DNA of 64,000 nt. It comes from a virus. Its lineage: Duplodnaviria; Heunggongvirae; Uroviricota; Caudoviricetes. The translations under genes were made by a program, and so were the position numbers. Positions within the stretch are counted from its first letter, which is position 1, and each line of letters starts with the position of its first letter. Below are positions 35,884 through 38,528 of the stretch, piece by piece. The stretch is from the IMG/VR virus record IMGVR_UViG_2795385584_000001, positions 21,334-85,333 of that record, one strand, 5' to 3'. The notes beneath the pieces were generated by a model. That model did no database searches, was not told where the DNA came from, and was given only the letters and a program-made list of their open reading frames with translations.

Positions 35884-37599
35884 CTACAGTCCGGCCGAGA
35901 AGTCCGAGATCAGCTGCGGGACAGCCGAGTCGAAACCGGACACGTCGAGCTGGCCGGGGTCGGCGGGGTCGGCGATGGTGAAGCGGGTTGCCGTCATGCC
36001 GACAACGATCAGGCGGGCGTTGATGCCCGTCTTGTTGCGGTAGTCGCGGAGCGCCTGGTGTGGGTGGACGTCGCCGAACCAGGTTTCGTTGTCGGTGATG
36101 ACCACGAACGTGTCGAACTCGCGCTTGGACTGTTGTGCCCACAGCATGGGGAGTGCGCAGTCGGTGGCGCCGAAGCTGAGTCCGGCGGTGTACCGGCACA
36201 CGTCGTCGAGGCGGCGGCGCGGTGTGATGTCCAGCGGGGTGATGTGGTGCTGGGACCGGTAGCCGTAGCCCGAGCGCGCGGCCTGTCGTCCGTCGGTGAA
36301 GCCGACGACCTCGTGGTCGGGCTCGACGTTCGCGGTGACGAGTGCGAGTGCGGCTGCGGCCTCGCGGCATGTCAGCGGCATACCCGAGATCGCGGCACCC
36401 ATGGAGCCGGATACGTCCAGCGCCAACAGGGTTCGCTTCCCTGACGGCCGTACCGCGCCGTAGGCGTTGTAGAACGCGGTGTCCAGAGCGTCCACGACCT
36501 TGCGTTCCGGCGTCCAGGTGGAGTCGCCGCGCGCCGAATGCCCGGACGCGTAGGTGCGCTGTGCGATCAAGACGTTGACCGGGTGGACGCGTCCCTTGCG
36601 TAGACGGTCGGCGTCCTGGAGCTGAGCAACCACGCGATCCAGATATTCACCATGGAGGACCCCATGACGGGTCAGGCGAGGCAGTTGGCGCATCAATGCG
36701 GTCTGCGGCAGACCGTGCTCAATCAGCGCTTCCCACACAGCGGTGAAGTTGAGCGCGACGTCTGGCAACGCTTCCCAGGGAAGGCCGTTGCCACGTCGAA
36801 TGATGCTCACCCATTCCTTGGGCTGGGTGGCGCGCTGGGCATCCTCGAAGTCCTCGATGATCGCCAGGGGGTGGTCAACCACAAGCTCGACGTTAGGCAG
36901 CTTGGGCCGGGAGGCGTTGCGCTCCCCCGCCTTCAACTGCTCGGCAGTGAGGGGCTGGACCTTACCGATGTAGTCGTTCAGGCCCTTGCCGACTGCCCAG
37001 TTGAAGGCGAGGCGGCGAGCCGGGTCCGCCGTGGTGGGGCCGGACAGGCGTAGTAGGTCCCGGTGCATCCAGCCTTCGCGCTGCCGGTACTTGACCAGCT
37101 GGTAAGCGAGGCGGTCGACGGGCTTGTCGAGGTACCAGCCGCCGACGGCGCGCTGCATGGCGCGGCCCCACCCGCGGAACTGCTCCATGTACTTGACGAA
37201 CGTGTAGAGCTGGGTGCCGGTGCGGGCGACCGTGGGCAGGGCTGCTGCGGCGGCACGGCGGCCGTCGACGTCCTCTGCTGCGGCGGCGACGGCGAGGGCG
37301 AACAGTGCCGGGTTCTGCCGGGGTGCGCGTCCGTCCACAGACACCTCGACGATGTGCTGGACGAGGCGGACTGGGTCGGCCGCTGCTGCGCGGAGCACGA
37401 CGGCCGCTGTTTCCTTGGTGAAGTCGGGGGCGGTGGTGTAGTAGGTGCCGCCGTCGGTGCCGAGGGTGAGGAAGCGGTGCAGCAGGGCCTCGTCGTCGAT
37501 GGTGAAGGTGTAGCCACCGGCGGAGTTCTTCACCTGCCGGGGGTCCGCCTGCTGCGACTGCGGCGTCTTACGGGTTCCGATAGTGGTGAGGACGTCCAC
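35884..37599 (-). CDS. rsr: Ro60-like TROVE-domain RNA-binding protein with C-terminal vWA domain
   Basis: 571 aa; C-terminal vWA MIDAS LLALDVSGSM; N-terminal helical domain matches TROVE layout; GTG start with AAGGAG RBS; tRNA-like ncRNA array immediately upstream. Confidence 0.75.
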   Translation of the reverse strand: MDVLTTIGTRKTPQSQQADPRQVKNSAGGYTFTIDDEALLHRFLTLGTDGGTYYTTAPDFTKETAAVVLRAAAADPVRLVQHIVEVSVDGRAPRQNPALFALAVAAAAEDVDGRRAAAAALPTVARTGTQLYTFVKYMEQFRGWGRAMQRAVGGWYLDKPVDRLAYQLVKYRQREGWMHRDLLRLSGPTTADPARRLAFNWAVGKGLNDYIGKVQPLTAEQLKAGERNASRPKLPNVELVVDHPLAIIEDFEDAQRATQPKEWVSIIRRGNGLPWEALPDVALNFTAVWEALIEHGLPQTALMRQLPRLTRHGVLHGEYLDRVVAQLQDADRLRKGRVHPVNVLIAQRTYASGHSARGDSTWTPERKVVDALDTAFYNAYGAVRPSGKRTLLALDVSGSMGAAISGMPLTCREAAAALALVTANVEPDHEVVGFTDGRQAARSGYGYRSQHHITPLDITPRRRLDDVCRYTAGLSFGATDCALPMLWAQQSKREFDTFVVITDNETWFGDVHPHQALRDYRNKTGINARLIVVGMTATRFTIADPADPGQLDVSGFDSAVPQLISDFSAGL

Positions 37600-37735
37600 C
37601 GTGCATCTCCTTGTTAGAGGGTGCGGGCGGCGCGAACGTGTGAAGGGCTGCCGGGGTTCGTCATCCTTGCGAGGGGTGGGGTAACCGACTGCGATCCTGC
37701 TCGTGCCACCCGCGTGGGCTATTGGGCGGGTGATG

Positions 37736-37885
37736 TGAACGTGTGTGTGCTGACCGGGATTTCGCTTTTACACCCGCACTAGGTGCAGGCGACAGGGATT
37801 GAACCTGCATTAACCAATTGAGTGATAACTGACCGAGCGTCCTGTTCACATCGGGTTGTCTGTCGTGCGTGCGCGTAGGTGGCGT
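37736..37885 (-). ncRNA. Y-RNA-like (Yrl-type) tRNA-mimic module, unit 1
   Basis: T-arm-like GCAGG-TTCAATC-CCTGT; acceptor-like hairpin CCTGCAC/GTGCGGG; adjacent to rsr. Confidence 0.4.
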
Positions 37886-38052
37886 GGGCGTGTGGGGTGC
37901 TGACCGGCGTATGTGGACAATTGCCTCTACCAATTGGGCTACACCCCGCGAGCGAGGTGGTGGGGCTCGAACCCACACCTGACTGTTTTGGTAACCGACC
38001 TGCGTCCTGTCCACACCGCCTGCGCGCATGCGTCTGCTGGTGTTTGAGGTGG
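37886..38052 (-). ncRNA. Y-RNA-like tRNA-mimic module, unit 2
   Basis: T-arm GTGGG-TTCGAGC-CCCAC; acceptor hairpin CACCTCG-CTCG-CGGGGTG; D-arm TAGCCCAATTGGTAGAGG. Confidence 0.45.
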
Positions 38053-38218
38053 TGTGAGCGTGTGGGTTTCGTCCGGGTTTAGCGCTCTAGGCCGCTGAGC
38101 TACAACCACTTTCGTGGCTGGCGGGATTCGAACCCGCGTCTCTCTCAGGAAAGGAGATAACCGAACGAAGTCCTGTTCACACCGTGCTGTGCATGGAGTT
38201 GTGTTGGGTGATGGGGCG
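38053..38218 (-). ncRNA. Y-RNA-like tRNA-mimic module, unit 3
   Basis: T-arm GCGGG-TTCGAAT-CCCGC; acceptor hairpin CAGCCAC-GAAA-GTGGTTG (GNRA loop); D-arm TAGCTCAGCGGCCTAGAGC; long imperfect closing stem. Confidence 0.5.
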
Positions 38219-38381
38219 AACGTGTGTGTGCTGACCGGGGTTTAGCGCTCTGCCAACTGAGCTACAGCCGGGGGCTGGCTGGCGGGACTCGAACCCGCGA
38301 CCTCTCCATTACAAGTGGTAACCGACCTGCGTCCTGCTCGCACCATCTGGTGTCTATGTAGTTGTGGTCTGGGAGTGACGT
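38219..38381 (-). ncRNA. Y-RNA-like tRNA-mimic module, unit 4
   Basis: T-arm GCGGG-TTCGAGT-CCCGC; acceptor hairpin CAGCC-AGCCCCC-GGCTG; D-arm TAGCTCAGTTGGCAGAGC. Confidence 0.5.
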
Positions 38382-38528
38382 GAACGTGGTTGGCGCTGGG
38401 CGGGTTTGGCTCCATTTCCCCGCTTGGCTCGGGGCGTTCTAACTTGAACTACGGGGGCGTACCCCGAGATAACCGACCTGCATTCTGTTCACGTCGTCCG
38501 TTGTTTTGTTGTCTGAAAACGAAGCTAT
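38382..38528 (-). ncRNA. Y-RNA-like variant unit 5 (D-arm and hairpins, no T-arm)
   Basis: Hairpin CGGGG-TACGC-CCCCG; D-arm TAGTTCAAGTTAGAAC; hairpin CCCCG-AGCCAAG-CGGGG; shares the conserved flank. Confidence 0.3.

Follow-up and report, generated by a model that had tools for sequence, protein, structure and literature searches.

What is encoded in the roughly 900 bp directly upstream of a Ro60 gene carried by a temperate mycobacteriophage? We asked this question of a 64,000-nucleotide (nt) window, the whole stretch of DNA analyzed, which spans positions 21,334 to 85,333 of IMG/VR record IMGVR_UViG_2795385584_000001. An earlier note, made from the letters of the window alone, had proposed a tandem array of permuted tRNA-like, Y-RNA-like (Yrl) modules ahead of an rsr-like gene. 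We conclude that the region is very probably an operon-like unit of the phage, in which six Yrl genes are followed by the gene of their partner, Ro60. By analogy with the systems studied by experiment, the units would be Y RNAs of the YrlA and YrlB types that are expressed, bind Ro60, and function with it. This kind of locus is already known, including in mycobacteriophages. The present one is a large, unannotated example, and the size of its array alone is out of the ordinary.

By its match to prophiGD43A-5 and prophiT37-1, the window is a Mycobacterium abscessus prophage of cluster MabK, the cluster to which both of these belong (PMC8092301; PMC9934374). The stretch 35884-38600 is, over its full length, 95.8% identical to prophiGD43A-5 (MW584167) and 95.1% identical to prophiT37-1 (OQ417969). 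Both GenBank records label the Ro60 gene "Ro-like RNA binding protein" and leave the ~900 bp upstream of it unannotated, except for one "tRNA-Thr" in prophiGD43A-5. Neither MabK prophage paper mentions Y RNAs (PMC8092301; PMC9934374). The gene is defined by the open reading frame (ORF) list and by domain matches:

35884-37599, minus strand: Ro60/Rsr orthologue gene, 571 amino acids, GTG start

Its Shine-Dalgarno sequence, AAGGAG, is located at 37612-37607, 7 nt before the start. The ORF matches the Pfam domains TROVE (6.3e-46) and vWA_Ro60 (2.1e-63) and the RNA-binding protein family PHROG 850 (5.5e-105). Among solved structures in the PDB, it matches D. radiodurans Rsr (2nvo; 5.5e-103), X. 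laevis Ro60 (1yvp; 6e-100), and human Ro60. When aligned with 12 relatives, the DxSxS MIDAS block (D395, S397, and S399) and the TROVE block around Q167/K170/Y171 are invariant across all 13 sequences. Judged by these matches, the rsr-like gene of the earlier note is a bona fide Ro60 orthologue.

We searched the DNA upstream of this gene with covariance models from Rfam and with two models of our own. Model R1 was built from 16 seed units, four from the window and 12 from other Ro60 loci, and was also used to scan about 100 Ro60 loci (18 genomic and 82 viral, some of them named below by L numbers). Model R2 was built from 42 units that came only from loci with a Ro60 at most 58% identical; MabK, L032, and L038 sequences were left out of it. 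We found exactly six tandem modules, from 38500 down to 37621, on the minus strand like Ro60. They lie directly upstream of the gene, at 22 to 900 nt from its start:

38500-38369, minus strand: U1, Yrl module; R1 41.6 bits (E = 1e-8), R2 23.7 bits (E = 1e-3 over the whole window), and fold
38349-38205, minus strand: U2, full YrlA-like unit; Rfam YrlA 37.6 bits (E = 2.7e-6), R1 139.4 bits, R2 120.2 bits
38188-38043, minus strand: U3, full YrlA-like unit; Rfam YrlA 28.9 bits, R1 120.3 bits, R2 94.3 bits
38022-37873, minus strand: U4, full YrlA-like unit; Rfam YrlA 28.5 bits over the full-length model, R1 100.9 bits, R2 64.8 bits
37857-37724, minus strand: U5, partial Yrl module; R1 77.9 bits, R2 48.4 bits
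37712-37621, minus strand: U6, short YrlB-like module of 92 nt; R1 38.6 bits (E = 6e-8), R2 28.8 bits with filters off, minimum free energy (MFE) z-score -2.9

Over the whole window, R1 returned these six units and a single 22-bit artefact across two real tRNAs (62649-62766); U1 and U6 were recovered even though they are outside its seed. R2 also found all six (with filters off for U6), and the next best match in the region scored 5 bits. Because R2 holds no sequence of this phage clade and scores the units at 24 to 120 bits, the six modules are far beyond chance. The Rfam search gave a divided answer. At gathering thresholds, nothing was reported in the array region, whereas with E-value reporting YrlA (RF02553) was the top family for U2, U3, and U4. 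These sub-threshold alignments cover the T arm, the acceptor-like hairpin, U8-A9, and the D arm, and the Ro60-binding strands of U2 and U3 are left unaligned.

The six modules share one frame. It consists of a closing helix, an unpaired bulge (RCAGGAY), a second helix (GGUCGG/CCGGUC), and GGUUAYC. In all six, the 5' strand of the closing helix, G(G/A)(U/C)G(U/C)G(A/G)(A/G)C, pairs with the 3' strand ...ACACG(U/C)(U/C)C(A/G)C..., and in the second helix GCAGGUCGG pairs with CCGGUCAGC. Inside this frame, U2 to U4 contain a V hairpin or a V loop, followed by a T arm (GYGGG-UUCGARY-CCCRC), an acceptor-like hairpin, U8-A9, and lastly a D arm (GCYC-A(G/A)...GG..A-GRGC). The frame thus encloses a variable "effector" domain, which is a complete mimic of the tRNA elbow in U2 to U4, a partial mimic in U5, a different, three-hairpin domain in U1, and a minimal one in U6.

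U2 is the most conserved unit of the array. It has a V hairpin (CCA-CUUGUAA-UGG), a T arm (GCGGG-UUCGAGU-CCCGC; ~38298-38282), an acceptor-like stem of 5 to 6 bp, and a D arm (GCUC-AGUUGGCA-GAGC; ~38262-38247). In U3, the T arm (GCGGG-UUCGAAU-CCCGC; ~38137-38121) is followed by a 7-bp acceptor-like stem (CAGCCAC/GUGGUUG) with a GAAA loop and by the D arm (GCUC-AGCGGCCUA-GAGC; ~38100-38084). Its MFE fold yields the closing stem and the V, T, and acceptor-like hairpins, with a z-score of -3.8. U4 has a T arm (GUGGG-UUCGAGC-CCCAC; ~37976-37960), a 7-bp acceptor-like stem (CACCUCG/CGGGGUG, loop CUCG), a D arm (GCCC-AAUUGGUAGA-GGC; ~37939-37923), and an A15:U48 pair. U5 retains a T arm (GCAGG-UUCAAUC-CCUGU; ~37808-37792) and a 9-bp acceptor-like hairpin, and its D region is degenerate; folding recovered its closing stem, T arm, and hairpin. 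The interior of U1 is formed by three hairpins (GGGG-UACG-CCCC, GUUC-AAGUUA-GAAC, and CCCCG-AGCCAAG-CGGGG) and lacks a T arm; its stem is the Ro60-binding stem of the family (GACGUGAAC/GUUCACGUC, bulge AGAAUGC, GUCGG-UUA). U6 is the frame without T, hairpin, and D arms (closing helix GGUGGCACGAGC/GUUCGCGCCGCC, bulge AGGAUCG, GUCGG-UUA/CCGGC), and its 3' end lies 9 nt ahead of the Ro60 Shine-Dalgarno sequence.

The permuted tRNA-like domain that defines YrlA is therefore complete in U2, U3, and U4, partial in U5, and missing from U1 and U6. Because they are without this domain, U1 and U6 are YrlB-like or "other Y RNA" modules, not YrlA. The earlier note had counted five to six units directly upstream on the strand of Ro60, and it had described the order of T arm, acceptor-like hairpin, and D arm within a long, imperfect closing stem. 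We see the same position and order and a closing stem, made of the 5' and 3' ends, and the count is six. Its statement that each unit is strongly tRNA-like applies fully to U2, U3, and U4 and to the T arm and hairpin of U5, but not to U1 and U6, which lack the T and D consensus. Likewise, the 7-bp acceptor-like stem is found in U3 and U4, but the stem is 5 to 6 bp in U2 and 9 bp in U5. The units are also not uniformly ~150 bp in length, as had been stated, but measure 92 to 150 nt. They are 41 to 73% identical in pairwise comparison, and Tandem Repeats Finder reported no array in the region because the units are too diverged.

In tRNA-like numbering, the acceptor-like stems of U4 (~37948-37965) and U5 (~37774-37791) contain a G3.U70 wobble. 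G3.U70 is the identity pair of AlaRS. We considered whether it is meaningful here; close relatives retain the wobble in U4, but the U5 orthologue in L021 has G-C at this place, and the wobble is probably incidental.

The structural case rests on covariation, since the single-sequence MFE z-scores are mostly nonsignificant. RNAalifold, which the earlier note had proposed as a check, gave 28 pairs on a plain MAFFT alignment (closing helix, 9 bp; inner helix, 5; T arm, 5; acceptor-like stem, 5; D arm, 4), with compensatory double changes in 22 of them. We also aligned 66 distinct sequences to the model. In this alignment, which is fitted to the model and hence favors the structure somewhat, 94.4% of cells pair, compared with 77.6% after shuffling (0 of 500 shuffles reach the observed value) and 35 to 45% after sliding. 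Double changes occur in 24 of its 28 pairs. For the closing helix, which is present in all six units, compensatory changes are seen in nine of nine outer and four of five inner pairs, with 93% of cells paired. Compensated differences exist even between the closing helices of the window itself (U5 GAUGUG/CACAUC, U1 GACGUG/CACGUC, and U3 GGUGUG/CACACC). The tRNA Levitt pair 15:48 covaries as well. It is G:C in 10 sequences, including U2 and U3, and A:U in four, including U4, so that the signature is consistent in 14 of 15 scorable seed units. Chen et al. (2014, PMC4201824) used the same compensating tertiary signature to argue for a tRNA-like fold.

Could the repeats act as DNA, for example as iterons, operator- or stoperator-like sites, or recombination sites, or be selfish tRNA-derived repeats, rather than encode RNAs? 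Their tandem layout in a long noncoding stretch within the early-gene region would suit such a role, as would the differing copy number between close relatives. However, the sequence blocks are poorly conserved and yet the pairing is kept, as the double changes in 24 of 28 pairs attest. The covarying 15:48 pair also argues against a DNA-level reading, R1 and R2 found no copies of the modules elsewhere in the 64-kb window, and the linkage to Ro60 and the common strand hold across phyla. Because both pairing and the 15:48 pair covary, a purely DNA-level repeat is excluded, and we regard this explanation as a whole as very improbable.

The units might instead be ordinary or degenerate tRNA genes, that is, a cluster of phage tRNAs or pseudogenes of the type common in mycobacteriophages. 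The sequences of the T and D arms are indeed tRNA consensus. ARAGORN calls a tRNA-Thr(tgt) at 38272-38350 on the minus strand, which is annotated as gene 51 in GenBank record MW584167, and the Rfam tRNA model gives a 34-bit match at 38113-38271. However, the ARAGORN cloverleaf has only four of seven acceptor pairs and an aberrant D arm, and it is pieced together from the 5' strand of U2, the V hairpin, which resembles an anticodon loop, and the T arm. The Rfam match, the only one to the tRNA model in the array, reaches over a 100-nt insert from U2's D arm to U3's T arm; it is the mirror image of the "dimer" artefact that Chen et al. warned of (PMC4201824). For comparison, the real tRNAs of the window score 52 to 72 bits with Rfam. 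The order of T arm, hairpin, and D arm is seen in 16 of 16 seed units, no anticodon arm closes the structure, and the prophiT37-1 record lists 0 tRNAs (PMC9934374). The array contains no canonical cloverleaf by RF00005 or ARAGORN, and the annotated tRNA-Thr(tgt), with its four of seven acceptor pairs, is a false call inside U2. This was the sole ARAGORN call in the region, and a reading as tRNA genes in canonical order is hardly credible.

The two genuine tRNA genes of the window are located at 62608-62820 on the minus strand, ~50 nt apart (Arg-ACG, 71.6 bits; Ser-GCU, 51.6 bits). A weak false Yrl match of 20 to 22 bits in this stretch is made of the T arm of one tRNA and the D arm of the next. 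Neither tRNA is annotated in prophiGD43A-5. Because the annotation of that prophage lacks them, the window probably differs from prophiGD43A-5 at this place or extends into host DNA.

We then compared the Yrl-Ro60 unit with known systems. Chen et al. (2014) described YrlA-like RNAs within 4 kb of Ro60 and on its strand; they counted 254 bacteria and, with mycobacteriophages among them, 22 phages, and the total was 355 such RNAs, so some genomes have several (PMC4201824). They defined the Yrl features as a GNCGAAN0-1G motif, V, T, acceptor-like, and D elements, and tertiary pairs (PMC4201824). All six units of the window lie on the strand of Ro60 and within this ~4-kb distance. In M. smegmatis, YrlA (147 nt, with a 7-bp acceptor-like stem) and YrlB are bound by Rsr, are encoded upstream of rsr, and derive from one precursor; YrlA is cleaved by RNase P and receives CCA (PMC4201824). 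The layout in the window is alike, with Yrl genes upstream of Ro60 on its strand, long units with V, T, acceptor-like, and D elements, and a short unit adjoining the gene. The 7-bp stem has its counterpart in U3 and U4. Compared through the text and probes of the paper rather than the locus sequence, the V arm of U2 (UUACCACUUGUAAUGGAGAGGUC) is nearly the complement of the M. smegmatis YrlA-5' probe (UUACCACUUCUAAUGGAAUGGUC; PMC4201824). Unlike M. smegmatis, the window is phage-borne and has six modules instead of two, the contact motif RCAGGAY instead of GNCGAA, and the three-hairpin domain of U1.

Among phages, the cluster C mycobacteriophage LinStu (L036) also carries Ro60, and a YrlA-like unit (R1, 96.6 bits) and a short one (36.5 bits) immediately precede the gene on its strand. 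A YrlA has been published for ET08, another phage of cluster C (PMC4201824). LinStu differs in having two modules rather than six and in its contact motifs (CGAG and canonical CGAA). Unlike the M. abscessus prophage, which is temperate, LinStu is a lytic myovirus, and the DNA identity of its Ro60 gene is 72% over ~500 bp only. In the LinStu record (NC_023714), an annotated hypothetical protein, gp230 (4571-4744, minus strand), overlaps both Yrl RNAs (4692-4850 and 4588-4672) and is unlikely to be a true protein-coding gene. For the proposed mechanism, the strongest precedent from experiment is the Thermus phage phiLo: in vitro, its Ro60 bound each of two Yrl RNAs encoded upstream, and ternary complexes with host PNPase formed (PMC12135203). 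The phage Ro60 with Y-RNA-like genes directly upstream is common to both. Compared by description rather than by sequence, phiLo differs in having two RNAs, which are set by a CGAA motif and a stem-bulge-stem, and a search of the phiLo paper for the term "tRNA-like" gave no occurrence (PMC12135203). For S. Typhimurium, YrlA's tRNA-like domain has been crystallized (6cu1), and a binding partner of unknown identity, an effector, was postulated for it at the tRNA elbow (10.1101/312249). The nucleotides of its tertiary interactions, including the 15:48 pair, are conserved in the window. Unlike the situation in Salmonella, where the RNAs are 3' of rsr in the rtcBA operon, no RtcB or RtcA was found near the window Ro60.

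Is an array of this size unusual? The earlier note thought a multicopy array beside a phage rsr to be so, but arrays of two to five modules are the norm, with a median of ~3 across the ~100 loci, and Yrl RNAs beside mycobacteriophage Ro60 genes have been in print since 2014. Among the 67 additional viral loci, we counted no module in ~12 (several of which have no upstream sequence), one in 2, two in 19, three in 17, four in 8, five in 9, and six in 1, the unrelated viral contig L046. Loci from bacterial metagenome-assembled genomes have from four to at least five (L005 and L006). MabK-type prophages have six, and the sister prophages L021, L022, and L028 have seven. Therefore, multimodule arrays are the rule, and six to seven modules are the upper end of the sample rather than a new kind. 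The layout of long units, a short unit, and Ro60 on one strand is seen in LinStu and in dozens of viral and bacterial loci, and a short unit commonly adjoins the Ro60 start. A few loci depart from this layout, with Yrl matches found downstream of the gene (L076) or flanking it (L034, one upstream and two downstream). IMG/VR contains 482 viral contigs with a Ro60 relative, so phage Ro60 is far more frequent than the 22 phages of 2014 would indicate.

The units differ in how widely they are kept. U2 is 79 to 88% identical to one unit each in L032, L038, L044, and L045, whose Ro60 is 62 to 75% identical. U5 is 87% identical to a unit of L038, and U6 shares 76 to 77% identity with the short unit that comes last in L032 and L038. 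U1, U3, and U4 have no such orthologues; U1 is present in all MabK relatives and has no clear orthologue outside them. The seventh module of L021, L022, and L028 (~2240-2394) is an extra unit with T arm, hairpin, and D arm between U2 and U3, and in L023 (2446-2577) U3 has lost its 3' closing strand through a ~35-nt deletion. The acceptor-like hairpin of the L038 orthologue of U2 is identical to that of U3 in the window, which suggests exchange between units. The array thus combines a conserved core, the YrlA-proper together with the short unit at its end, with a periphery that is fluid.

How might the array be transcribed? A terminator scan gave a single terminator-like site on the minus strand, close to the 5' end of the array:

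38524-38541, minus strand: perfect 18-nt palindrome GCUAUACCGCGGUAUAGC (= GCTATACCGCGGTATAGC) followed by U-rich UUCGUUUUCA, 24 nt upstream of U1

The scan found three sites versus 2.1 expected, and the palindrome is not significant alone. It occurs once in the window even when three mismatches are allowed, and it is kept at a near-constant distance from U1 in 11 of 11 MabK-type loci. It lies downstream of a candidate small ORF (38931-38596), at the 5' limit of the array, where it may end transcription arriving from upstream, act as an operator, or do both. From 38523 to the Ro60 stop codon, the minus strand has no terminator-like site, either between the units or before Ro60. The spacers between the units (e.g., 38350-38376 and 38189-38210) are C/A-rich and unstructured, and several contain ACAACUNCAU(A/G), which is also seen in L021 and L032; these spacers may be processing sites. 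The simplest reading, drawn from the analogy with M. smegmatis, would be that the array is cotranscribed with Ro60 and processed in the spacers.

The absence of a terminator between the array and the gene would also agree with a different role, in which U6, if not the whole array, serves mainly as a leader acting in cis. In this scenario, Ro60 would bind its own 5' untranslated region and autoregulate its translation or stability, and there would be no stable trans-acting RNAs. The end of U6, 9 nt ahead of the Shine-Dalgarno sequence, and the short unit adjoining the Ro60 start at many loci point the same way. However, the equivalent M. smegmatis RNA, YrlB, is stable, processed, and bound by Rsr (PMC4201824), and the S. 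Typhimurium Yrl genes are 3' of rsr, so a leader position is no requirement of the family. Cis and trans roles are also compatible with each other. We consider a mainly cis-acting leader distinctly unlikely.

Several observations weigh against our identification of an operon-like Yrl-Ro60 unit, in addition to the partiality of the fitted alignment. The best unit, at 37.6 bits, does not reach the RF02553 threshold of 69 bits. However, the positive control, LinStu, scores 36.1 bits and is equally below the threshold, and actinobacterial units score 31 to 41 bits; because the control also fails, the threshold does not discriminate in this clade. The refuting outcome named in the earlier note, a lack of covariance-model hits, would have occurred at this threshold, and for the same reason it is uninformative. 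The matches of U1 and U6 (24 to 42 bits) depend solely on the Ro60-binding stem. Single-unit MFE z-scores, from -0.0 to -3.8, are mostly unremarkable. No sigma-70 consensus promoter was found in our scan; by inspection, we noted TTGCAG-N18-TAGCTT, to which we give low weight, and its weak -10-like TAGCTT overlaps the 3' half of the palindrome. Published RNA-seq of the lysogen indicates that most of the prophage is silent (PMC8092301). The content of the array is unstable among prophages with 97 to 99% identical Ro60, and not every module need function.

The contact motif is a further point on this side. The GNCGAAN0-1G motif does not occur in the array, where the aligned position reads GC-AGGA-C/U (AGAAU in U1) and two of six specified bases differ. 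Canonical CGAA is present in L004, L005, L006, and the LinStu short unit, and CGGA intermediates are present in L003, L010, L030, L033, and L035. By its place in the alignment, RCAGGAY is a clade-specific variant at the contact position, not the absence of a motif, and it would be the local version of the GNCGAA or GGUCCGA Ro60-contact motif. Because the CGGA intermediates fall in loci of intermediate Ro60 identity, the comparison suggests that the motif and the Ro60 protein are drifting together. The core of the earlier proposal, Yrl-type tRNA mimics that partner Ro60, is supported by the sub-threshold YrlA matches, the R1 and R2 results, the covariation, the Levitt pair, and a position and strand as published (PMC4201824), but not every module is tRNA-like.

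Pfam and PHROG scans of the genes neighboring Ro60 identified no RtcB, RtcA, PNPase, or tRNA enzymes. In these scans, the neighbors of the Yrl-Ro60 unit are a BrnT-like toxin on the opposite strand and otherwise hypothetical genes. The toxin gene (phrog_36779, 1e-33) and its presumed antitoxin, at 39019-39270 and 39222-39461 on the plus strand, are divergent from the Yrl-Ro60 unit. The presence of an RNA-targeting toxin beside tRNA-mimic RNAs may be a coincidence. Between the toxin gene and the array lies a candidate unannotated small gene (38596-38931, minus strand; 111 amino acids). Its product would have a signal-peptide-like N terminus (MKSLYVKRIAVIGAAIAALTVLPTATASA...) and end in a tail rich in Gly, Ser, and Ala. 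Pfam and PHROG gave no match for it, and the related GenBank records leave it unannotated.

Drawing on the systems of D. radiodurans, S. Typhimurium, M. smegmatis, and the Thermus phage phiLo, we can outline how the Yrl-Ro60 unit might work. The array and Ro60 would be transcribed together in lytic growth and cut into RNAs of ~90 to 150 nt. Each RNA would use its bulged helix to dock on the outside of the Ro60 ring. The docked RNA may gate the ring and tether it to a host partner, either PNPase or, for the tRNA-like modules, an enzyme that binds the tRNA elbow. Because of their 7-bp acceptor-like stems, U3 and U4 would be likely substrates of RNase P and of the CCA-adding enzyme, as is M. smegmatis YrlA. 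Several effector domains on one scaffold would let a single phage Ro60 serve several partners.

A bolder proposal, which we put forward tentatively and think unlikely, is that the expanded array is a functional toolkit and not mere redundancy. One Ro60-binding scaffold would then present no fewer than four kinds of effector domain: three distinct tRNA-elbow mimics that differ in their acceptor-like stems, a partial one, the three-hairpin domain, and the minimal unit. In the course of infection, these might tether Ro60 to several host tRNA-binding enzymes or nucleases. Alternatively, modules cut by RNase P and bearing CCA might serve as decoys for host defense or toxin nucleases that target tRNAs. 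If this proposal is true, the rapid gain and loss of modules among prophages with 97 to 99% identical Ro60 would reflect an arms race.

The known concept of Ro60/Y RNA ribonucleoproteins is unchanged by this locus, and its practical value lies mainly in annotation. The ~900 bp that are blank or carry a false tRNA-Thr in MabK GenBank records are a six-gene Y-RNA array, and the actinobacterial and phage units that we tested escape the Rfam YrlA model. Most of the phage Ro60 genes surveyed come with two to six tandem Yrl modules, typically long tRNA-like units and then a short one beside the gene. If each module recruits a different partner, M. abscessus prophages, with their inducible lysogens and clinically relevant host, would be a compact natural system in which to study the effectors of tRNA-like Y RNAs.

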